A stretch of 64,000 nt of DNA from an uncultured Bacteroidales bacterium. Lineage in GTDB: Bacteria > Bacteroidota > Bacteroidia > Bacteroidales > JAGOPY01. Below, piece after piece: positions 14,896 through 63,937 of this stretch (position 1 is the first letter of the stretch; every line of letters starts with the position of its first letter). A program made the translations under genes and the position numbers. Location: positions 2,596,124 through 2,660,123 of the forward strand of contig CAVPBC010000002.1 in NCBI GenBank assembly GCA_963701785.1, in the 5' to 3' direction. The notes under the pieces are model-generated. The model had not been told where the DNA came from. It made no database searches and was given only the letters and a program-made list of their open reading frames with translations.

Positions 14896-14929
14896 AATGA
14901 CTAATGACCAATGCCAATGACTAATGACT
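14896..14929. repeat. Heptamer tandem repeat (AATGACY)x5, one unit 6 bp
   Basis: aatgact aatgacc aatgcc aatgact aatgact, between convergent genes. Confidence 0.75.
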
Positions 14930-15646
14930 TACTTTTTATGCAGTCCGCATTCCTTCATCTCCGGATTTTCCCACCACCATCTTCCGGCACGGATATCTTC
15001 ACCGGGCTCGGTAGCACGTGTGCAGGGCTGGCATCCGATACTGGGAAATCCCTGGTCATGCAAAGGATTATAAGGTATTTTATTTTGACGGATATAGTCC
15101 CATAAATCCTCTATATTCCAATTTATAAGTGGGTTTATCTTGATTTTGTTATTTAGATTATCCCATTCAATTAACGAGATATCCTCGCGGGTCACAGATT
15201 GTTCGCGCCTTAACCCGCTTATCCAGAAATCAACACTTTCCAGTGCCCTTTTCAGGGGTTCTATTTTCCGTATCTGACAGCATAATTTCCGGTTCCCGAC
15301 ACTTTCATAAAATAAGTTGATCCCTTTGCTGTTGACCATTTCTTCCACGGCTTTCTGGTCAGGGAAATATGTTTTGATCCTGACTTTATAACGTTGCTGT
15401 GTTAAATCGAGCAAATCATAAGTTTCCGGAAACATTCTGCCGGTATCGAGGGTGAACATATAAACATCCGGGTCGATACCTGCAATTATTTGTGTAATGA
15501 CCTGGTCTTCAGCTCCGAGACTGGTCGAAAAACCAAGCCTATCCTTGTAATTCTTTATAAAAAATCGCAAGACATCAGCAGCAGACTGATCTTCAAACTG
15601 TTGGTTAAATTCCTTTAATAAGATTTTGTGCGATATCAGCGTTCAT
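14929..15646 (-). CDS. cysH: APS/PAPS reductase, [4Fe-4S] APS-reductase type (5' frameshift ~15615)
   Basis: LDTG, CCQIRK, GLRREQS, SIGCQPCT, RAGRW, ECGLH. Confidence 0.9.
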
Positions 15647-42726: not shown

Positions 42727-44537
42727 ATGGAATCAAAAGTTAAAGCCATTATCGCAAAATATAATCATGACCGGACCAGGCTGATGGATATTTTGCATGA
42801 AGTCAAGGATGAGTTTGGTTATATTTCTGCTGAGGCTGTCAAACATATTGCTGCAATTTTAAAGATGTCTGAAGTCGACGTGGAGCAAACCATTTCTTTT
42901 TATCATTTTTATTCAAAGACTTCACCCGGTAAATATGCAGTTTACCTGAACAACAGTGCTGTTGCATGCATGATGGGAAGGCAGGAGATTGCCGCTATGT
43001 TTGAAAAAGAGGTTGGAATCCCTTTCAATTCAGTTACGCCGGATGGGCTGATCGGCCTTTGGGACACTTCGGATATCGGGATGAATGACCAGGAACCTGC
43101 AGCCATTATCAATGATGTGGTATTTACCAGGATTACTCCTTCGAAGGTGCGTGAACTCGTTGCTGCATTCCGATCCGGAAAAGATGTGAAGGAACTGGTT
43201 ACCAAATACGGCGATGGTGAAAACAGCCATCCCATGATCAAATCTATGGTCCATAACAATATCATGAAAAAGGGCCCGATTCTGTTTTCCGAATATGAAT
43301 TGGGATTGGCAATCCGTAAAGCCGTCAATTTGACTCCTGAGCAGGTTATTGAGGAAATAAAGAGATCAAACCTGAGAGGTCGTGGCGGTGCGGGATTCCC
43401 TGCCGGATTGAAATGGGAATTCTGTCGTAAGTCAAGAGGACCTGTCACATATCTTGCTATGTAATGCAGATGAAGGGGAGCCTGGAACTTTTAAGGAAAG
43501 GGTATTCCTGACTGAATTACCTAAACAATTATTTGAAGGAATGATCGTGGCAGGTTATGCCTTAGGAGCAAAAGAAGGGATTTTATATTTAAGATATGAA
43601 TACCGCTATCTCGTGGCATACCTTGAGAAAATGCTGCAGGAAATGCGTGAAGGTAACCTGCTGGGAAAGAATATTGCCGGCAAACAGGGATTTAATTATG
43701 ATATCCGGATCCAGCTCGGAGCCGGAGCCTATGTTTGCGGGGAGGAATCAGCGCTGATCGAATCGATGGAAGGGAAAACGGGGAGAACCACGCAACCGTC
43801 CGCCATTCCCGGTCCAGAAAGGTTATCTTGATATGCCCACTGTCATCAATAATGTAGAGACCTTATCTGCCGTGGTTAAAATCATGGTGAAAGGAGCTGA
43901 CTGGTTCAAAGCAATGGGAACCAAGGAATCTGCCGGCACCAAACTGCTCAGTATATCCGGCGATTGCAAACATCCCGGAGTTTATGAAATAGAGTGGGGT
44001 ATGACAATCCGTGAATTACTGGAAATGGCCGGGGCAACTTCTGTCCAGGCAGTCCAGGTTGGCGGGCCATCAGGTACCTGTATCAATCCCACACAGTTCC
44101 ATAGAGAAATAGCATTTGAAGACCTCGCAACCGGGGGATCCATGATCGTCATCGGAAAACAGCGAAACCTGCTTAAAGACATAGTGGTCAATTTTATGGA
44201 TTTCTTCATTGAAGAATCCTGCAGTTCCTGTGCGCCTTGCCGTTCACTGACCGTAATCCTGAGGAATAAATTGCAAAAGATCCTCGATGGGCATGGCTCA
44301 CGAACCGATGTCAATGAACTATACCAGTGGGCTAAATACATGAAAGTCTGCTAAATCGCTGCGGTCTTGGACAAACTGCTGCCAACCCGATACTTTCAAC
44401 TATTGAAAATTTCAGGCAACTATATGAAGACCTGGTGATCCCCGAAGAAGAATTTGTGTCGGACATTCAATATGGAAGATGCTGTTGCAGATTCCTGTGC
44501 ATATGTGGGCAGGGTTCCAAAATTTGAACATAATTGA
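42727..44537 (+). CDS. hoxF: NAD-reducing hydrogenase diaphorase subunit HoxF (NuoE-like + NuoF; frameshifts ~43455, ~43778, ~44350, ~44462)
   Basis: [61 protein letters not shown]. Confidence 0.92.
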
Positions 44538-45858: not shown

Positions 45859-47311
45859 ATGTCTCAGAAAATCACTATAGAACCCGTCACCCGGGTGGAA
45901 GGTCACGGGAAAGTCACCATCCATCTTGACGACCAGAATAACGTATCACAAACCAGGCTTCATATTGTGGAATTCCGCGGTTTCGAGCGGTTTGTGCAGG
46001 GCAGGCCTTACTGGGAGGCACCTGTGCTGGTGCAGCGCCTGTGCGGCATTTGCCCTGTCAGCCACCACCTGGCCGCAGCCAAAGCTTTGGATGTGATTGT
46101 CGGTGCTGGAACAGGCGAAGGCCTCACCCCGACCGGCGAAAAAATGCGCCGGCTTATGCACTACGGGCAAATGTTCCAGTCACATTCCCTGCATTTCTTT
46201 CACCTGGCATCTCCTGACCTTCTCCTGGGTATTGATGCAGATCCTGCTATAAGAAATATCATAGGTGTTGCAATCCATCACAGGGACCTGGCTATCCAGG
46301 GGGTCATGATGCGGAAATTCGGACAGGAGATCATTGCCGCCACAGCAGGAAAGAAAATACATGGCACTGGCGCAATACCCGGTGGTATCAATAAGCATCT
46401 TACGATCAGAAGAAAGAGATAAGTTCCTTAACGGACCAGATCCGTTAAATATCGATAAAATGATCGAATGGTCAATCGGGGCGCTCGATTTCTTTAAGAC
46501 ATATTATAAAAAGAATAAGGAATTTATTGATTCGTTTGCATATTTCCCCTCCAACCACCTAAGCATTGTCAGGAAAGATGGCGCTTTGGATTTATATCAT
46601 GGTGTCCTCAGGGCTGTAGATACAGATGGTAAGAAAATCCTTAATGATATCGATTATCAAAATTATACGGATTATATAGAAGAAGAAGTCAAGTCATGGA
46701 GCTACATGAAATTCCCGTATCTGAAGGAATTAGGCCCCCAGAAAGGCTGGTACAGGGTTGGTCCGCTGGCACGGTTAAATACCTGTGATTTCATACCTAC
46801 TCCTTTGGCACAGAAAGAATTTGAAGTGTTTAAATCCCTGACAAACGGTAAGCCGAATAATCATTGCATGCATTCCCATTATGCCCGCCTGATTGAAATC
46901 CTTCATTCGGCTGAAGAGATAAAAAAATTGCTGAATGATCCTGACCTGCTCGAAGGGCCATTGGTTGTAAAAGGCACCAAACAGGATGAAGGTATCGGTT
47001 TGATCGAAGCGCCGAGAGGCACCCTTTTTCACCATTACAAAATCAATGAAAATGACCAGATCATTATGGCAAATCTGATCGTCTCGACAACGAATAACAA
47101 TGAGCCCATGAACCGGTCTGTCAATCATGTGGCCAAAGCCTGGATGAATGGCAAGACCCAGATTACCGAACCGATGATGAATGCCGTAGAGGTGGCAATC
47201 AGGGCCTATGATCCCTGCCTGAGTTGTGCCACACATGCCTTGGGCCAGATGCCTCTTGATATTTCACTGTATGATAAGGATAATAACCTTCTCGACAGAA
47301 AACGGACATAA
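45859..47311 (+). CDS. hoxH: Group 3d [NiFe]-hydrogenase large subunit HoxH (frameshift ~46408)
   Basis: TRVEGHG, L1 RLCGICPVSH, EAPRG, L2 DPCLSCATH plus a cleavable C-terminal extension. Confidence 0.95.
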
Positions 47312-51622: not shown

Positions 51623-52924
51623 TTATTTCTGGCTTGTATCGAGGAAAACTGGTTTGGCAGTTATCATTACCCAAATCCAGGTCGGGAATTTTGAAGTGCC
51701 TGGTTCAATTCCCTGGAGTTTTTCCATGGAATCCGTAACCAGGAAAAATGAATAGCCTCCTTTAATATTAAATATTTTAGAGATATCCCATGAGAAATTC
51801 AGGTCAACTTCCTGGCCTAATCCTTTCGCAAGATAGGCCGTACTTTCCGAGGTCTTGTCAATTACATTATTTTGCAGGCTGAAAAAATGAAAATCGGCAC
51901 CAATAGTAGTGCTCTTTACCGGGATCCATTTAAGCCTGACGAAAATATCAACCAGTCCCCCGTTGTCAGTGGATTTGGGCAGGTTATTGAACAGATCCAT
52001 ATGCCCAAAGACGCTGTGCCTGTTACCATAGAAAATATCGAATGCATGTGCTTTTTCAAGATAAATTGAATCGGAACTTTGCTGGTCATGGCCCGACAGG
52101 TAATCAATCCCGGCTCCGACCGAATATTTCTCTTTAAACAGGTAATCGCCGCTTAATGCAAACATGTAAGCGCTGGTACTGAGACCTTTCCTGTTCTTTC
52201 CGCCCTGGTAAAAACCACTTGCCAGGGCGCTAAGAGGGCCTTTTTTAACTCCGAGGTAACCTGCATAGGTCCCCTGCCAGTTGATATCAGGGGTGGAATC
52301 TGTTGCTGTAAATCCTGATGCCAGCGCCATCATTGTCGCGTGGAGCCAATCATTAATATCTTTTCTTATATAAACGAAATTCATTGATTTCATTTTCCCG
52401 GTAGGATATTCATTACCAAAATTCCTGTCGATATCATTATTCCATGATAAACCGACATCCATCTTTAATCTATCACCGGCATGCTGAAAAAGGACAGCAT
52501 CATATTTGATTTCACTCTGGTTCCAATTCCTGTTAGAGAGCAGTCGTTGGTCTTCATAGGCCCAGTATTGGCGGCCTATTTTAACATTTCCTTTTTCATA
52601 AGGCTTGATCCCCAGCCATGCTTCATTAATATCGATGCTGGCCTTGCTTCCGAAAACACCGGTCGAGGAATAAAGGTCTTCATCACCCCAGACCATTACA
52701 TCCTGAATAGCAAATCCAAATGAATAGATACCGGTATTGTAATAAGCAGAAAGCCTGCTGCGCTGGGAAACGAAAAAAAATGGTTTTTCATCCTCGGCAA
52801 GGATTTTGCCGTAACCGCCACGGTATTCAAACCGTGGTCTGAATTCCCCTTTTAAGGTAAACTGGGCATTTGCCTGTGAAATAATTAACAGGAAATAAGT
52901 GCAAATTACAATTGATTTTTTCAT
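51623..52924 (-). CDS. Outer-membrane beta-barrel, alginate-export (AlgE-like) family
   Basis: Signal peptide, EFRPRFEYRGGY, FVSQRSRL, KIGRQ, alternating beta strands, GQEVDL. Confidence 0.75.
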   Translation of the reverse strand: MKKSIVICTYFLLIISQANAQFTLKGEFRPRFEYRGGYGKILAEDEKPFFFVSQRSRLSAYYNTGIYSFGFAIQDVMVWGDEDLYSSTGVFGSKASIDINEAWLGIKPYEKGNVKIGRQYWAYEDQRLLSNRNWNQSEIKYDAVLFQHAGDRLKMDVGLSWNNDIDRNFGNEYPTGKMKSMNFVYIRKDINDWLHATMMALASGFTATDSTPDINWQGTYAGYLGVKKGPLSALASGFYQGGKNRKGLSTSAYMFALSGDYLFKEKYSVGAGIDYLSGHDQQSSDSIYLEKAHAFDIFYGNRHSVFGHMDLFNNLPKSTDNGGLVDIFVRLKWIPVKSTTIGADFHFFSLQNNVIDKTSESTAYLAKGLGQEVDLNFSWDISKIFNIKGGYSFFLVTDSMEKLQGIEPGTSKFPTWIWVMITAKPVFLDTSQK

Positions 52925-52959
52925 AATATGCAATTTTTGTTTAAATTTTTGGCTGGTTT

Positions 52960-53721
52960 CTAATAGAATAATCCTTTAATGTAAGATTTGGTCTTTTCTT
53001 CCTTAGGATCATTAAATATCTGGTCGGCTGTACCCTGCTCAACTACTTCCCCCATATACATAAAGATGACGTTATCTGCAATCCGTCTGGCCTGGCGCAG
53101 GATATGCGTCACGAGAATGATAGTATAGCTCTTTTTAAGTTCAATGAATTTCTCCTCGATTGCCTGGCTTGAGATGGGATCGAGTGCCGATGTCGGTTCA
53201 TCTGCAAGGATAATCTCAGGGTCAACAGCAAGTCCACGTGCGAGGCAAAGACGCTGCTGCTGGCCTATGGATAATTTTGAAGCAGGGTCCCTTAAACGGT
53301 CCTTCACTTCATCCCATAGATTTGCAACCCTGAGGTAATGTTCAACACGTTTATCCAGGAATTGCTTCTTTCTGCGGCCACTGATCCTCAAACCATAAGC
53401 TATATTATTATATATATTCATCGGAAGAGGGTAGGGGCGCTGGGAAAGAAGGCCCATTTTTTGCCTGAGTTTCGTGATATCCATTTGGGTATGAAGGATA
53501 TCATCATCATTAATAAAGATCTGCCCGGTCACTTTTACATCAGGGTAAATATCAGTCAGACGGTTCATGCTTTTCATCAGTGTGGTTTTTCCGCAGCCTG
53601 AAGGTCCCAGAATGACTGTAATCTTCTTTTCCGGTATAGCAACATTGATATTCTTCAGAATATGTTGTTTCCCGATATACAGATCGAGATCTTTAATAAG
53701 TATTTTGATACCCTTTTCCAT
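52960..53721 (-). CDS. pstB: PstB-like ABC ATPase
   Basis: GPSGCGKTT, LSIGQQQRLCLAR, DEPTSALDP, VTH. Confidence 0.85.
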   Translation of the reverse strand: MEKGIKILIKDLDLYIGKQHILKNINVAIPEKKITVILGPSGCGKTTLMKSMNRLTDIYPDVKVTGQIFINDDDILHTQMDITKLRQKMGLLSQRPYPLPMNIYNNIAYGLRISGRRKKQFLDKRVEHYLRVANLWDEVKDRLRDPASKLSIGQQQRLCLARGLAVDPEIILADEPTSALDPISSQAIEEKFIELKKSYTIILVTHILRQARRIADNVIFMYMGEVVEQGTADQIFNDPKEEKTKSYIKGLFY

Positions 53722-53722
53722 C

Positions 53723-54580
53723 TCAGAAATTAATTTTGTGTTTCTGGTATCTTTTTGAATACAGTCTGGCCAGCACACTGATAATCAAAATGATTACAGT
53801 GAGAACAACGGCAGAGGCATAAGCCCGGTTCTTAACTTCTTCGATCGGAGAAGAAAGTTGGAAAAAAATGGAAAGCGGCAAAGTCGCTGTAGGTTGTCCA
53901 AGCGAAGTAGGAATATGATCCGTATAGCCTGTTGTAAAAAGAACAGACGCCGCATCGCCTATCGCTCTTCCGAACGATAATAGAATGGCCGTGACCAACC
54001 CCGGAGAAGCCTGTCGCAGAAAAACCCTGAAAGCTGTTTCGGAATGCGTGGACCCCAATGAAAGCGATGTTTCCAGTAACCCGATGGAAATAGTTTTTAA
54101 AACCTCATCCATTGCCCTGACCATGATCGGTATAATAAACAGGGTGACGGTGATAATACCGGCTAACAGAGAAGTTTTAATACCGAAATAGATCATAATG
54201 GTGAATCCAAAGGCTCCATAAACAATAGAAGGGATTCCCCAGAGCAGGTCCAGAATAAAACGGATAGCGTTGATCAGTTTTTTATGTTTTACCAGGATCA
54301 CATTCATCAGAAGAGCTACTGGCAATCCAATTGCCACTGCAAGCAATGTTGCTCCGATTGAAAGGTAAAGAGAACCAATGATTGCATTCAGTATCCCGCC
54401 TTCTTTTCCAAAATAGAAACCTCCCTTGGGGGTTTGTGAGATCATCTCCCAGGAAAGGGAAGGCAATCCCTTATAAAGGATGCTGAAAATGATCAGCAGC
54501 AGCACGATAACGATCAGGTTGGTTGAGATGAACATCAAAACCCTGAAAAATTTTTCTTCTATGATTCTCAACCTTTTCAT
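53723..54580 (-). CDS. pstA: PstA-like permease
   Basis: GGILNAIIGS, IPSIVYG, GRAIGDAA. Confidence 0.85.
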   Translation of the reverse strand: MKRLRIIEEKFFRVLMFISTNLIVIVLLLIIFSILYKGLPSLSWEMISQTPKGGFYFGKEGGILNAIIGSLYLSIGATLLAVAIGLPVALLMNVILVKHKKLINAIRFILDLLWGIPSIVYGAFGFTIMIYFGIKTSLLAGIITVTLFIIPIMVRAMDEVLKTISIGLLETSLSLGSTHSETAFRVFLRQASPGLVTAILLSFGRAIGDAASVLFTTGYTDHIPTSLGQPTATLPLSIFFQLSSPIEEVKNRAYASAVVLTVIILIISVLARLYSKRYQKHKINF

Positions 54581-55483
54581 TAACTGGTTTGCTTTTCAAG
54601 TCGGACAATAGCTAAACGCGATAAAAAATTAAATACCAGTACTACAAAAAACAGGATCAATGCAGCAAGCATCAGCGCAGAATCATAGAGTGGGATTGAT
54701 AACATTTCCCCGTAGTTATTAGCAATGAGTGCGGGAAGAGGGATATCCCGGCTGAAAAATTCCTGAAGGGATTTTCGCCACATTTCCAACTACCATCAGA
54801 ACTGCGATTGTTTCACCAAAAGCACGGGATAAACCCAGGCCGAGAGCCGAAACGATACCCGGGAACGCTTTCCTTAGCAACACAAGTTTGACTGTCTGCC
54901 ACTGGCTTGCCCCAAGGGAAAGAGAAGCCTCTTTTAATTCATCGGGTATGGTTTTAAAAACATCGATCAATATATTCAGCACAAACGGAATGATCATAAC
55001 GGCCAGGACTATAGCGCCAGCCAAAATGGTATATCCTGATGTACTGACACCGAAAAAAGGAGCAAGGTACTTTGAGATGAATGGAACAATAACAAGAATT
55101 CCCCATACTCCGAATATTACAGATGGAATACCGGCTAAAATATCGATAACCGGGTGCATGATCTTAAGGACCCAGCCTTTTGCATATTGTGTCAGATGAA
55201 TGGCAGTCAGAAGGCAAATGGGTCCTGCAATTAATAGGGATAAAACAGTAACCCAGATAGAACTGACGGCGAAAGGCAGGAAGCCAAATTTCCCGGATAA
55301 GGGCCGCCAGTCGCTCGAAAAGATCAGGTCAATCAACGATTGGTTTTCAAGCAGCAGGGTAGATTTAATATACAAACCTACACCAAGGACAAATGGAAGG
55401 AAGATGACCATGATAAGTCCGATCATCATCCAGATCAAATGCAACCTGCTTCTCAGATGTCTCCCTATTCTATACCTGGCCAA
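54580..55483 (-). CDS. pstC: PstC-like permease (frameshift ~54738)
   Basis: [34 protein letters not shown]; TTG start. Confidence 0.85.
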
Positions 55484-55485
55484 TC

Positions 55486-56463
55486 TTAATTAAGTTTTAA
55501 TTTTTCAATTTTGATCTTCTCATCAGGGAGCTGCACATAACCTCCTTCATGCACATATTGCTGGCCTTCAGATAATATCCAGTCAAGAAATAAAATAATA
55601 ACAGGATCTGTTGGCTTGCCTTTAGACACCAGGTATAAATCACGTGCTGGTGGTGAAGGATATTTATCGGTTTGTATGGCGTGCATGATCGAATCAAGGC
55701 TTCCGTAAAAATTTTCATCGGAATCAATCAACCGGTTGCTATTCAGGTCAATCGGTATGATTTCCATCCCTTCATATTTTTTTCTTGATTTAATATCATA
55801 AGCATAAATCACATTATTATATCCAATCCCAAACTGGTCATTTTTAACAGCATCTGCAATGCCGGGATCACCAAAAACGCCGACACCTCTTAAGCTTTCC
55901 TGGTTTTTACCAAGGTACTTGCCCCACATTTCAGCCGCACCGCAGGCATCAGAGCGGGTATAGACATTGATTTTATTCTGATCCGGCATTTCCATGAATT
56001 CTCCCCAGGTATGCGTATTCTCACTGAGATAAATTTCCATGAACATCTGACGGGTTAATCCTTTTGTTAAAATATCACCAGCAACCGGGTTTTTACTGCT
56101 CATGGTAGGTAAAACAGCATCTTTCGTAACAGCAAGATACCATGCTCCCTGGTCGATCTCAGACTGGCTTACTTCGCGGGAAAACATGGCCAGGTTTACC
56201 ATTCCTGAAAGCACATCAGTCATGCCTTTACCTGCACCCCCTGCTGAGATATCAATCCTGATTGCAGGATACTTTTTCTGGAATTCCTCGGCCCATTTTA
56301 CCGTCATAGGATAAAGGGCAAATGCGCCTGAAATAGAAATAGTCCCTTTCAGTTCTCCTTTTTTATTTAATCTAACCCCCTCATTTGAATTACATCCGGC
56401 AGCAAGTGTAATTATTAACAGAGTAACAAAAGCCAGGGATAAAAATGTTTTTAAATCATTCAT
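55486..56463 (-). CDS. PstS-fold substrate-binding lipoprotein with atypical binding pocket; substrate uncertain
   Basis: Lipobox AAGC; motifs GAFALYP, GGAGKG, MFSRE and RSDACGAA where PstS proteins have GSTS/GATF, GSSxG, SSR/ASD and RxDGSGT. Confidence 0.85.
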   Translation of the reverse strand: MNDLKTFLSLAFVTLLIITLAAGCNSNEGVRLNKKGELKGTISISGAFALYPMTVKWAEEFQKKYPAIRIDISAGGAGKGMTDVLSGMVNLAMFSREVSQSEIDQGAWYLAVTKDAVLPTMSSKNPVAGDILTKGLTRQMFMEIYLSENTHTWGEFMEMPDQNKINVYTRSDACGAAEMWGKYLGKNQESLRGVGVFGDPGIADAVKNDQFGIGYNNVIYAYDIKSRKKYEGMEIIPIDLNSNRLIDSDENFYGSLDSIMHAIQTDKYPSPPARDLYLVSKGKPTDPVIILFLDWILSEGQQYVHEGGYVQLPDEKIKIEKLKLN

Positions 56464-56514
56464 GATGATGATGTTGTGTTTTTTAAATATCGTTCCAAAG
56501 TTATTAAAATATAT

Positions 56515-56539
56515 ATACCCTATAGAAATAATAGATAAT
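56515..56539. promoter_or_regulatory. Candidate Rrf2 operator of the pst-like operon
   Basis: ATACCCTATAGAAATAATAGATAAT (CTAT-N7-ATAG), just upstream of the minus-strand -7 box TAACTTTG (56496-56503). Confidence 0.4.
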
Positions 56540-56991
56540 TAAATTTTATGATTTTTTAACTCATTAATTAACAATTCTTCCCGGCTAATGATATCAGATA
56601 AACTGATTTTCTTCAATATGTTAACCGTATCATCCCGTATGTCCTTTATAACGCTCCGGATCCCGCAAGTCAGTTCATCCTTACAATGCTGGCATGGCTG
56701 GTAATACTTATATGTAACACAAGGTATCAGTGCAATGGCACCGTCAATATGCCTTATAATATCAGCCAGGTTAATTTCTTCAGGTTTTTTAATGAGATAA
56801 TATCCTCCCCCTTTTCCCTTTTTGCTGCCAAGTATTCCTGTTTGTTTAAGATCAAACAGAATCGCTTCCAGGAATTTCCTGGGTATTCTTTCACTCTGCG
56901 AGATGCTGCCGATCACCAAAGGTCCTTTATTATATTCCTTGGCAAGTTTAACAAGAGCTAAAATAGAATATTGCGCCTTCTTTGATAACAT
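56539..56991 (-). CDS. Rrf2 family regulator with four C-terminal Cys
   Basis: IPRKFLEAIL, SKKGKGGGYYL, PCVTYKYYQPCQHCKDELTC. Confidence 0.92.
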   Translation of the reverse strand: MLSKKAQYSILALVKLAKEYNKGPLVIGSISQSERIPRKFLEAILFDLKQTGILGSKKGKGGGYYLIKKPEEINLADIIRHIDGAIALIPCVTYKYYQPCQHCKDELTCGIRSVIKDIRDDTVNILKKISLSDIISREELLINELKNHKI

Positions 56992-57176
56992 AATTATTAT
57001 TCCTGATCAGATAAAAGATAAATTAAATCCAGAGATATGTTTAAATAATGATATTTTTTCTTAAAAAATCCGGTCAATCATTTTAAAATTTAAGTAAAAT
57101 TAAAAATATCTTGACTATTGCATTTGATTTCTTTAAATTTGTGATGCTTTTGCCGCATTTTCCAGATTATATTTTC

Positions 57177-58349
57177 ATGGGTCCAATTCTGGTATTATAT
57201 ATAGCATTCGCTGCAATATCTTTTTTTGCTTGCTTTTTGCAACTTTTTATTTCAATCAGAAAAAGGGGCGATATGCTATTCATGGTAAGTGCCATTCTTT
57301 CATTATTTGTATTTGTGCTTTTCAGCATTGAAGTCATTTGTTCATCTTCCCTCGGAATTTCATGCCTTCCCTTTTCTCTCCTGCGCAGTCAATTGATTTT
57401 TTACCAGTTATTGGCAATATGCTTTCTGGGAGTGATTTATCACCTTTTGAAAGTCCAAAGGAAAATCTATATTTTAATAAATGTTTCGATAATTGTTTTT
57501 TTATTGTTTATCAGCCTGATTCTTCCGGATGAAATTCTGTTCGGTGCAGATACAGATAGCAGACGTCTGATCTTGCCTCATGGTGATAATATCCTTATGG
57601 TTGAATCTGGTTTCACTTTGTGGAGAGCCCTTATAGATTTTACCATAATTATTTTTGCCGTTTCCACATTCCTGCTTTTATTAAAGCGCCTGGATAATAT
57701 CAGCTTCAGAACGATCGTAATTCTTTTTGCCGGACTGGGTGTGATCTTGCTTGCTGCTATATTTGATCAGCTTGTCGATCTCGGACAGATTCATTCATTC
57801 TATGTCCTGCCTTTTTCCCTGTTTGTATTCTACATCATTTTAATTTTTATCCCATTTATATATTTTATCAAGGAAATAATTGATCAGCAAAGTATTATCC
57901 AGAAGCAGAAGGAATGGCACCACCTGGTGAATGAGGCTGAAATCATTGTCGTGGGTTTAAACAGAATGGGCCATGTTGAGTTTATCAATCCATACTTTTT
58001 TATATTGACAGGATATAAGGAAGATGAAGTCATAGGCAAAGACTGGTTCGAGTTTTTTATTCCACCGAAAGAATATTATAACGTCCAGGGTGCATTTTTA
58101 GAAATCCTTGAATATGAATTCCATCCCGATTATCTTAATCCAATTCTAACCAGGAACAAGGAAGAAAAAATGATCAGGTGGTTTAATGTCAGGACTACTA
58201 ATCACCTGGGGAAAATATCTGGTAGCTTAAGCATCGGGATTGATATGACCAGTGATTTGCTGGAAAAAGAGAGTTTATTAAAAAAACTTAAAGCAGCTGA
58301 GATTTTAATTACCAAATTAGGAGGTAAAAGTGAGGATTTTAAATTATAA
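57177..58349 (+). CDS. 7TM membrane protein with C-terminal PAS domain and no output domain
   Basis: About 7 TM segments; PAS/PAC (GHVEFINPYFFILTGYKEDEVIGKDWF..IRWFN..SIGIDMT); short coiled-coil end. Confidence 0.75.
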   Translation: MGPILVLYIAFAAISFFACFLQLFISIRKRGDMLFMVSAILSLFVFVLFSIEVICSSSLGISCLPFSLLRSQLIFYQLLAICFLGVIYHLLKVQRKIYILINVSIIVFLLFISLILPDEILFGADTDSRRLILPHGDNILMVESGFTLWRALIDFTIIIFAVSTFLLLLKRLDNISFRTIVILFAGLGVILLAAIFDQLVDLGQIHSFYVLPFSLFVFYIILIFIPFIYFIKEIIDQQSIIQKQKEWHHLVNEAEIIVVGLNRMGHVEFINPYFFILTGYKEDEVIGKDWFEFFIPPKEYYNVQGAFLEILEYEFHPDYLNPILTRNKEEKMIRWFNVRTTNHLGKISGSLSIGIDMTSDLLEKESLLKKLKAAEILITKLGGKSEDFKL

Positions 58350-60336: not shown

Positions 60337-61732
60337 ATGTCTGATAACAGAACAAACCGCAGGGATTTCATCCGCATTGCTGCTGCCGGTGCTGCTGCAC
60401 TTGGATTGGGCATGAAAGGGATCAAGGGGAATTCACAGGAAATTTCAGGACTGATCCCCCCAAATCGGCCGCTGGGCCAAAAAACCGTCATGGGCCTTAC
60501 CTGCGAACCGCTGGAAAAGGTAAGGATCGGCGTAATTGGACTGGGAATGCGCGGAATCGAAGCTGTAAGCCGTTTGTTGTATGTTGAAGGAGTTGAAATA
60601 ACCGCTGTGTGCGATATTCTGCCTGAAAGGGTATTACAGGCCCAGAAGAATGTCAAAGAGAAAGGATTATCAGAACCCGCTGGATATTCAGCCGGACCTG
60701 ACGATTGGATGAAACTCTGCGAAAGAGATGATATCGATCTCGTGTATGCTTGTACCCCATGGTATTTACACACGCCTAATGCCGTTTATGCCATGAACAA
60801 CGGGAAACATGCGGCCATAGAAGTGCCGGGAGCAACTACCCTGGAGGAGTGCTGGCAGCTTGTAGATACGGCTGAGCAAACCCAGCGTCATTGCATGATG
60901 CTGGAAAACTGCTGTTATGATTTCTTTGAACTGGCAACATTGAATATGGCCCGCAATGGTGTCTTTGGTGAAATCATGCATGCGGAATGTGCTTATATCC
61001 ATGACCTGCGCTGGTTGAAGTTTGATAAGGAAAATGGATATGTTGACATGTGGAGGTTGAAATACAGCATGAACCATAATGGCAATCTTTATCCGACCCA
61101 CGGGCTGGGCCCTGTCGCCCAGATCATGGGGATCAACAGGGGCGACAGGATGGAATACCTTACTTCAACATCGACAAACCAGGTTGGGATGAGCATAGTA
61201 TGCCAGGGATAAATTTGGTGAAAATTCTCCTGAATACCAGCAGTCATATTTACTGGGCGATATGAACACAACACTTGTAAGGACTGTGAAGGGGAAAACC
61301 ATTATGATCCAGCATGATACGACAAGCCCAAGACCTTACAGCAGGATACATATGATAAGTGGTACCGGCGGTATCGCACAGAAATGGCCGGTAGAACAAA
61401 TCGCACTCGAACCAAATGCCCATGAATGGCTGAATGAAACGGACCTGAATAATATTTTGACAAAGTATGAGCATCCTTTAGCCAGGAAAATGGGGGAGAT
61501 GGCGCGTGAAGTCGGTGGCCATGGCGGGATGGACTTCATAATGGACTGGCGGCTGATATATTGCCTGCGCAATGGCCTGGCCCTGGACCAGGATGTTTAT
61601 GATGCAGCTTCCTGGTCAAGCATAGTCCAGTTAAGCGAAATATCTGTCACCAATAAAAGCCAGATGGTGGAAATCCCTGATTTTACCAGGGGCATGTGGG
61701 CTGAAACAAAACCATTGGGGATTGCAGAATGA
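60337..61732 (+). CDS. GH109 NAD+-dependent alpha-N-acetylgalactosaminidase-like protein, Tat-exported (frameshift ~61198)
   Basis: NRRDF Tat motif, IGLGMRG, TPWYLH, EVP, LENCCY, YPTHG, GGHGGMDF, PDFTRG. Confidence 0.9.
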
Positions 61733-62713: not shown

Positions 62714-63937
62714 ATGCATGATATGCTTACAAAAGAAAGTATTTACGTTATCTTCTTTTCCCTCCCGGTTTACCAGTTACTTTTCTATACGGTTCAGCTT
62801 ATATCCTTCAAAAGAAAGAACCCTTCAAAAAAATACCTGGGTTTGCTTCTTTTAAGCATGACTACATTCCTGGTTATTAACGCAATACATTTTCTGCGGT
62901 ATTATGATCTGTTTTTATACTTATATATTATTTACATTCCCGTCCTGCTGAGCATTGCCCCGGCATATTTCCTTTATATCCTTTCAATCACCAGGGAAAA
63001 TCATGATGTGAAGAAAAAGCAGAGGCTTGATCTTATTTTCACCGTCAATTATTTTCCTTATCACTAATATTATTATTCTGGGTACTCTGGATCAATCCGC
63101 CAGGATGTCTTTTATTAGCCAGGACCTTTTCAGCCAGGAATCCGATGGGAATGGCATGCAAGGACTATTGTTAGGTATCTGGATCGGGGCTATTGTTTTG
63201 ATTTTTGGCCAGATCTCATTTGCCATCTCGAAAGTTTCGAAAATCATGATGAGTGAAGCCGACCTGATGAGAAAACAACCTTCTCATTTAGCATACCTGG
63301 AATGGAGATGGATCCTGGGGATTTCTATCAGTGTACTGATATTTCTGGTTATTAATTCATTGATCGAAATGGTTATGCCAATGAAATTCATCGGCCTGGT
63401 TGTGGTATACAATTTACTGATGTTGATATCAGGCGGTGTGACCGGTTATTTAGGTATGAAACAGGACGATCTTCTTAACCAGGTGGAAAAAATCAGCTTT
63501 AGTCCCCGATATAACCAGATACGGAAATTTTACCGGTTAATGTACCGGAAAAGAGTGAAACACCGCCAGCGGATTTCCTTTCGGTTGAAGAAGCTGAAGA
63601 AATCCATAAATCGATCCTGGAATACCTTGAAACTGAAAAACCTTATATTAAAAGTGATTTTTCCATGCATGATCTGTGCAACCATTTGAATATCAGCCGG
63701 AGAAAGATCAGCTACGTCCTGAATGATGTTATCCAGAAGAATTTTTATGGGGTGATTAATGAATACAGGATAAAAGAAGCCGAAGAACTTCTGTTAAGAG
63801 ATAGCTTAAATCAAATGAAGATTGAAGTGCTGGGTGAGATGGTGGGATTTCAATCAAAATCATCTTTTAATGCCTGTTTTAAAAAAGTAACAGGGATGAC
63901 ACCATCGGAATTCAGGATGAAGAACAGATTATCCTAA
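62714..63937 (+). CDS. Membrane-anchored AraC family regulator (at least 2 frameshifts)
   Basis: TM segments in 62714..63067 and 63027..63689; AraC HTH (NFYGVINEYRI..VGFQSKSSFNACFKKVTGMTPSEFR); -7 box TATCTTTG at 62690-62697. Confidence 0.85.

Follow-up and report, generated by a model that had tools for sequence, protein, structure and literature searches.

The 64,000-nucleotide stretch of DNA analyzed here (the window) comes from an uncultured Bacteroidales bacterium (GCA_963701785.1, contig CAVPBC010000002.1, positions 2,596,124 to 2,660,123). On its minus strand, between window positions 51623 and 56991, lies a unit of six open reading frames (ORFs) encoding, in order, an Rrf2-family regulator, a PstS-fold substrate-binding protein (SBP), PstC, PstA, PstB, and an AlgE-like porin. 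An earlier note on this DNA had given the same order, and all six ORFs were found where it placed them. It had also expected annotation pipelines to call such a system a phosphate transporter, and the source names do read "phosphate transport system substrate-binding protein." The unit appears to encode an ABC importer that descended from PstSCAB and now most likely carries sulfate. We infer this substrate because the SBP has lost the phosphate-gripping residues and because relatives of the operon sit in sulfate-assimilation operons.

The genes of the unit, all on the minus strand, are tightly packed. The Rrf2-family transcription regulator (56539..56991) is a protein of 150 aa with cysteines at positions 91, 100, 103, and 109. 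After a gap of 75 nt follows the SBP gene (55486..56463), whose product is a lipoprotein (lipobox Cys at residue 23) with an altered pocket (SGAFALYP, GGAGKG, FSR, TRSDACGAA) and is the probable sulfate-binding protein. Only 2 nt separate it from the gene for the PstC-type permease (54581..55483; TIGR02138), where one extra assembly base near 54743 breaks the frame; the ORF as called spans 54719-55483. This gene overlaps that of the PstA-type permease (53723..54580; TIGR00974) in a TAATG junction. The ORF of the PstB-type ATPase (TIGR00972) opens at a GTG at 53778; its probable start is the ATG at 53721 (52960..53721), which leaves 1 nt between pstA and pstB. A further 26-35 nt downstream is the last gene of the unit, encoding a putative outer-membrane beta-barrel of 436 aa of the AlgE/Alginate_exp type (51623..52933; PF13372). 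The gaps of at most 35 bp that the earlier note reported for the transporter block hold if pstC is read through the one-base frameshift, which that note did not mention, but not for the pstC ORF as called.

The region upstream of the operon (56992..57110) is common to the operon and a divergent gene for a PAS membrane protein, and includes an AT-rich element of approximately 30 nt that is conserved in two close relatives (L009 and L010). The divergent gene (57111-58349) encodes a membrane protein with a PAS domain and no kinase or output domain, and it stands divergently beside the Rrf2 gene in seven loci. The flanks of the unit are unrelated to it and hold, besides the PAS membrane protein, a GH127 protein, a C1 peptidase, a pentapeptide-repeat protein, and a DHOD-like protein. 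As had been claimed, the annotated flanking genes include neither phoU nor phoBR anywhere near the unit in the window.

The binding protein matches only one Pfam family, PF12849 (PBP_like_2), at 100.4 bits. It falls below the cut-offs of both PstS models (97.1 versus 206.6 bits for TIGR02136 and 60.8 versus 205 bits for TIGR00975) and has no match to SBP_bac_11. Sequence and fold searches of the ESM Atlas and the PDB returned PstS-labelled relatives only, and the fold of its AlphaFold2 model (predicted local distance difference test, pLDDT, 94.8) is that of PstS. Judged from this model and from the alignments below, the binding protein is a PstS by fold but not by pocket.

The residues and motifs that the earlier note quoted for Escherichia coli PstS (T10, S38, D56, R135, D137, S139, and T141) were confirmed on the MG1655 protein. 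The substitutions that it had read by eye were seen again in two alignments. Against the canonical PstS encoded by the same genome, GSDT becomes GAFA, GGGSG becomes GGAGK, SSR becomes FSR, and RESSSGT becomes RSDACGA. A HMMER alignment to PDB 4gd5 gives the same picture (GSTS to GAFA, GSS to GAGK, SSR to FSR, and xDxSSGT to RSDACGA). The changes to GAFA, GAGK, and RSDACGA are therefore upheld, whereas the alignment behind the claimed replacement of D56 by serine is uncertain. The hydroxyl-bearing positions T10, S38, S139, and T141 of E. coli PstS align with F, A/G, C, and A in the variant. Likewise, the hydroxyls of the genome's own canonical PstS at S47, T49, S77, S94, S173, and T176 are replaced family-wide, with S174 changed to C and D48 to F. 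S95, R96, R170, and D172 are retained in the variant pocket. For comparison, Sbp holds its anion mainly by backbone amides.

These changes define a family. At an E-value of 1e-30 or better it comprises 193 representative clusters (50% identity), which share the pocket signature SGA[F/W]ALYP, GGAGKG, SR, and RSDACGA. Cultivable carriers of the family include Draconibacterium and Lentimicrobium strains. Among 174 aligned members the variant pocket residues are fixed, down to approximately 33% identity: A47 is found in 144, an aromatic residue (F, W, or Y) at position 48 in 138, A49 in 146, K79 in 127, S95 in 163, R170 in 158, and A176 in 144; position 174 is C in 109 and S in another 48. In a FastTree phylogeny the family is monophyletic with a support of 100 and is set off from canonical PstS by a long branch. 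The window protein belongs to a Bacteroidota sub-clade of 79 rows. Most of the metagenome proteins linked to cys genes fall in a neighboring sub-clade, and the internal branches between the two are short.

Several relatives depart from this arrangement. In a genome of the same genus, the same locus carries two tandem SBP genes and no Rrf2 gene (L136:8002-10030). Tandem SBP genes were also found at L012 and L013, where the first copy joins the family at its base, on a long branch. Orphan variant SBPs without pstCAB (L131:7798-13600, L133:8084-13700, L134:2432-7970) stand beside a gene pair encoding proteins of approximately 1030 and 450-506 aa, SusC/SusD-like as judged by size alone. The window's own genome encodes, outside the window, a 625-aa protein (L003:1222-3096) made up of a degenerate variant SBP domain with all pocket motifs changed, a membrane helix, and a GCV_H-like C-terminal domain (87 bits). 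ORFs of 549-652 aa resembling this fusion matched the family profile in approximately 20 genomes of the order sample described below. A third PBP_like_2 subfamily of 312-319 aa is distinct from both canonical PstS and the variant family, and the next gene always encodes a TPR protein of 558-576 aa (L090:9145-11825, L091:7022-9695, L092:8508-11146).

Gene neighborhoods were compared in two sets of loci. The closest set consists of 80 genome loci whose SBPs are 50-76% identical to that of the window. The metagenome set comes from a search whose query was an alignment of 20 more distantly related members of the family; it has 80 loci, with SBPs approximately 50-57% identical to the window's. Across the closest loci the core of the operon stays the same but its surroundings differ, holding Rrf2, Crp/Fnr plus Rrf2, a HisKA_3/LuxR pair, a MoxR/PpiC/IMPDH block, or GSIII, and they offer no metabolic partner; one of the 81 close loci (L033) has a CysN-like match. 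Among the metagenome loci with the same pocket, 14/80 have cysC, cysD, cysN, cysH, or sat in the fetched stretch, and these genes mostly flank SBP-pstCAB directly and on the same strand, as in the order Rrf2>cysC>SBP>pstCAB>cysD>cysN (L142). The assignments exceed the NCBIfam cut-offs for CysC (284.5 versus 163 bits), CysD (350.4 versus 195), CysN (343.9 versus 336.1), Sat (492.6 versus 387), and CysH (292.4 versus 154).

The same linkage occurs within the window's own order, for which we used a sample of 201 mutually related genomes. When CysD and SBP coordinates were compared, SBP-pstCAB lay no more than 5 kb from cysD in 6 of the 76 family-bearing genomes. In five of these the operon continues with cysD-cysN-cysH without a change of strand. 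One such operon (L217) also encodes a NIR_SIR sulfite reductase and has siroheme genes, for a HemC/SUMT/HemD fusion and for HemB. The sixth (L222) starts with a pyridoxal phosphate-dependent enzyme of the cysteine-synthase fold (PF00291) and ends in cysH, with cysD-cysN-Rrf2 divergent. The cys-linked Bacteroidales SBPs carry exactly the F-type pocket of the window protein. PhoU is adjacent to the operon in none of the 81 close and none of the 80 metagenome loci (0/161). A PF01663 phosphodiesterase/nucleotide pyrophosphatase (157 bits) was also seen between pstB and cysD, or beside the operon, at L175:4038-5429 and six other metagenome loci.

Across the 201 genomes the variant family is present in 76, a canonical TIGR02136 PstS in 59, and CysD in 142. 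CysD is found in 70/76 family-bearing genomes versus 72/125 of the others, a difference for which the Fisher value overstates the association because the genomes are related. No genome (0/201) reaches the cut-off for the classical CysT/W sulfate permease, though 142 have CysD.

In the window's genome, a canonical porin-pstS-pstC-pstA-pstB-phoU locus lies approximately 2 Mb from the variant unit, which answers the earlier note's question of whether a separate one exists. Between the canonical and variant proteins, sequence identity is 27% for the binding protein, 41% for PstC, 35-37% for PstA, and 43% for PstB. The cysH that had been reported in the window is there as a cysH-like gene (14929-15570), but it is not linked to the unit and lies 36 kb away among unrelated genes. 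This is a lone gene; elsewhere in the genome, cysC-cysD-cysN stand beside polysaccharide genes. Upstream of cysD, a gap of 137 nt (C2:424277-424413) is filled almost entirely by two short tandem-repeat arrays, one with a GGTCGGA-like unit and then one with a CCAATGA-like unit.

The regulator scores well above the cut-offs of the general Rrf2 models (PF02082, 113.5 versus 30 bits; TIGR00738, 108.5 versus 73.3) and below those of every named equivalog (IscR, CymR, NsrR, RirA), the best being IscR (73.5 versus 207.55) and CymR (66.4 versus 195). C91, C100, and C109 are kept in 30/32 aligned homologues, spaced as in cluster-binding Rrf2 proteins. Two homologues, including the one in the L142 cys operon, have none of these cysteines. 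The pattern would place the regulator with the iron-sulfur (Fe-S) type rather than the cluster-less CymR type. The earlier note mentioned four-cysteine Rrf2 proteins beside cys genes in Bacteroidota. We saw a link to cys genes directly only once, in L222, where the Rrf2 follows cysDN. The fourth cysteine occurs in only 18/32 homologues, all from Bacteroidota. An Rrf2 homologue stands beside the SBP gene in 18/81 close loci and in 13/80 metagenome loci; in the latter it heads the operon, often as Rrf2>porin>SBP. Among the order genomes, 28/201 have a homologue, with an SBP gene within 1.5 kb in 6/28 and CysN in 1/28. Because the SBP adjoins only 6/28 of these homologues, the regulator is only partly tied to this operon. 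Upstream alignment and an inverted-repeat scan gave only imperfect AT-rich repeats, and no Rrf2 operator could be defined from them.

The window porin matches PF13372 (Alginate_exp) at 36.1 versus 25.2 bits, a short match confined to residues 97-150 of the 436. In L218 the homologue aligns with this family over residues 29-350 (37.8 bits). The same porin cluster follows pstB in 30/81 close loci. The porin of the Rrf2-headed metagenome loci belongs to the OprO/P type (PF07396, 103 bits) and is unrelated to the window's AlgE-like barrel. Different clades thus appear to have recruited different anion channels, and the joining of unrelated porin types to the operon supports a functional role for the channel.

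Taken together, these observations are consistent with the following model. Sulfate would cross the outer membrane via the operon's own AlgE-like channel and be captured by the PstS-fold lipoprotein, whose pocket lacks the phosphate-coordinating hydroxyls and would hold the anion with backbone amides, R96, R170, S95, and the conserved aromatic residue. The anion would then pass to PstC/PstA, whose paired arginines would still form a divalent-anion site, and PstB would drive it inwards. Rrf2, with its three conserved cysteines typical of Fe-S-binding members, may adjust expression of the operon to the sulfur or Fe-S status of the cell. The probable destinations of the sulfate in this organism are cysDN-cysC, for the synthesis of 3'-phosphoadenosine 5'-phosphosulfate (PAPS), and the CysH-like reductase. 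Since cysCDN lie beside polysaccharide genes, the CysH-like gene is alone, and no NIR_SIR sulfite reductase was found in this 90% complete genome, sulfate may serve PAPS-dependent sulfation more than cysteine synthesis.

The missing sulfite reductase is also one of several points that weigh against sulfate import. Another is that the genome already has two SulP carriers. No cys gene stands beside the operon in the window's 80 nearest relatives or in 13 second-tier loci; since these show no cys neighbors, transfer of the function to the window unit would rest on the identical pocket and on clade membership. Position 48 is F in Bacteroidota members and W in the cys-linked members of other phyla, though F48-type loci are cys-linked too, in Bacteroidales. 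The remaining adverse points all bear on phosphate. The top Foldseek matches of the SBP model in the PDB are all phosphate-binding proteins. PstC passes its phosphate equivalog cut-off (TIGR02138, 221.2 versus 196.45 bits) and PstA and PstB come within 1-11 bits of theirs (TIGR00974, 192.4 versus 193.45; TIGR00972, 332.4 versus 343.2). In the 2026 cryo-electron microscopy (cryo-EM) structure of E. coli PstSCAB, the transported anion lies between PstA R220 and PstC R237, with E241 bracing R237, and the available part of that report (PMC12976172) ties this membrane site to phosphate specificity. The window and 64/65 loci keep PstC R237 and E241 and PstA R220; E224 of PstA is replaced by D, again in the window and 64/65 loci, and S133 is kept. 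The kept site fits a tetrahedral divalent oxyanion and, taken alone, would argue for phosphate. Finally, 41 of the 76 family-bearing genomes lack a canonical TIGR02136 PstS, and on one complete chromosome (G001) the variant system is the only Pst, with no PhoU, so that a phosphate role is possible there, although PiT carriers are present. The full cross-tabulation of the two (both 35, variant only 41, canonical only 24, neither 101) does not discriminate between substrates.

Could the unit then still import phosphate, as a second Pst whose pocket is remodelled yet functional and whose regulation lies outside the Pho regulon? The permease scores, the membrane site, the PstS fold, the genomes without a canonical PstS, and the R96, R170, D172, and S95 still present in the pocket all speak for it. 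We nevertheless give it only a small chance. The aligned pocket hydroxyls are replaced throughout the family, the binding protein scores under half of the PstS cut-offs, and PhoU never adjoins the operon. The operon has instead been joined repeatedly to cysDN, cysC, sat, and cysH, and once to a sulfite reductase (L217); CysD accompanies the family in nearly all genomes that bear it. All five genomes checked also have PiT carriers.

A different oxyanion, either one in which three oxygens are accompanied by a single apolar or soft vertex or a look-alike of sulfate (thiosulfate, sulfite, selenate, molybdate/tungstate, or phosphite), is likewise an unlikely cargo. The pocket is more apolar than that of PstS, with a conserved aromatic residue at 48 and a cysteine at 174, and, according to the part of PMC5700983 available, proteins that bind phosphite or hypophosphite make a P-H...pi contact through an aromatic ring. 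Arsenate and tungstate each have a binding protein in PBP_like_2 (PMC10443332, in the part available), and the regulators adjacent to the operon vary (Rrf2, Crp/Fnr, a LuxR-type two-component pair). The linked enzymes, however, namely ATP sulfurylase (CysDN/Sat), adenosine 5'-phosphosulfate (APS) kinase, and APS/PAPS reductase, act on sulfate and not on thiosulfate, sulfite, or phosphite. Neither a PtxD-like 2-hydroxyacid dehydrogenase nor a molybdenum-cofactor family occurs among the subset of neighbor clusters sent to Pfam. Phosphite import through an aromatic-48 P-H...pi contact is thus only a minor variant of this alternative, with no phosphite-oxidation genes seen beside the operon. Nitrate/nitrite import was considered from the NsrR-like Rrf2, Crp/Fnr, and a NarL-type pair, and was dropped as it had no other support and the linkage is to cys genes instead. 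That the unit is a decaying paralogue, with the pstC frameshift marking a pseudogenised operon, has a very slight chance. In the window sequence the one-base frameshift does cut PstC at residue 254, but the downstream frame continues as the conserved PstC C-terminus up to the TAATG junction, and the binding-protein family is strongly conserved. The base at 54743 is absent from contigs of four public runs from three studies, two of which agree with the window at every other base over 323 and 151 bases, and the same assembly also splits the canonical pstA, the canonical phoU, and several window genes. The assembly is indel-rich. Because the extra base is absent from the contigs of the four runs and other genes are split as well, the break in pstC stems from the assembly, and the natural gene has an unbroken frame. 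In the window, genes that frameshifts have split into two or three neighboring ORFs of a single protein cluster lie at 43454-44354, 45859-47311, 60337-61732, and 62714-63937.

The proposal of the earlier note, a Pst-derived importer re-specialized for sulfate or a related oxyanion, with an Rrf2 regulator and its own outer-membrane channel, therefore gains support from the fixed pocket, the cys operons, the absence of PhoU, the co-occurrence with CysD, and the separate canonical pst-phoU locus of the genome. We lean toward the view that such importers constitute a sixth, unrecognized class of prokaryotic sulfate transporter. This class would be Pst-derived, widespread in anaerobic Bacteroidota and several other phyla, and would supply cysDN/sat where CysPUWA is missing, with an Fe-S-type Rrf2 switching it by sulfur or Fe-S status. 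It would explain sulfate uptake in about half of the 142 CysD-bearing genomes of the order, none of which has CysT/W. If this is true, a good part of what is called "pstS" or "phosphate ABC transporter" in genomes and metagenomes would report sulfur and not phosphorus physiology. The affected calls would include those used as phosphate-stress markers, and phosphorus-cycling readings of metagenomes would be distorted. The pocket itself would be a natural experiment in the conversion of a phosphate site to one that takes a fully deprotonated anion.

The sulfate transporter families given in the available part of a review (PMC5840216) are SulT, SulP, CysP (PiT), DASS, and CysZ, and the term "Pst" is absent from that text. 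We found no description of a Pst-type sulfate importer in the literature, supplements and subscription journals being outside the coverage. The closest parallel in kind is Bacillus subtilis CysP, as described in the part of the same review available. CysP is a sulfate permease from a family of phosphate transporters (PiT); the residues critical for phosphate have been replaced in it, and its gene shares an operon with sat. In contrast to the variant unit it is a secondary carrier and not an ABC transporter, and the two are unrelated in sequence (PMC5840216).

Sbp/CysP-CysUWA (SulT) shares with the variant unit the proposed substrate and, in relatives, the position beside cysDN/cysH in operons, but no homology beyond the ABC superfamily. 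The variant permeases score far below the sulfate-permease models (TIGR00969, 47.6 versus 240 bits; TIGR02139, 48.5 versus 246.1). The regulator can be compared with IscR and CymR, with which it shares the Rrf2 fold and three cysteines spaced as in cluster-binding members. It differs from them in scoring below the equivalog cut-offs, in a fourth cysteine restricted to Bacteroidota, and in its probable target, a transporter operon. The closest system by architecture is E. coli PstSCAB (PhoT; PDB 1IXH-type PstS, cryo-EM 9K3X). The four-part architecture, the gene order, and the PstS fold are the same, PstC, PstA, and PstB are recognized by Pst models, and R237, E241, and R220 are kept. The variant unit differs in the loss of the T10-, S38-, S139-, and T141-type hydroxyls and in an SBP that scores less than half of the family cut-off. 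It also has no phoU or Pho-regulon neighbors, has its own AlgE-like porin and Rrf2, and has relatives linked to sulfate-assimilation genes. On these comparisons of sequence, the variant unit is of the Pst (PhoT) lineage by descent, and its binding protein lies outside what defines a phosphate-specific PstS.

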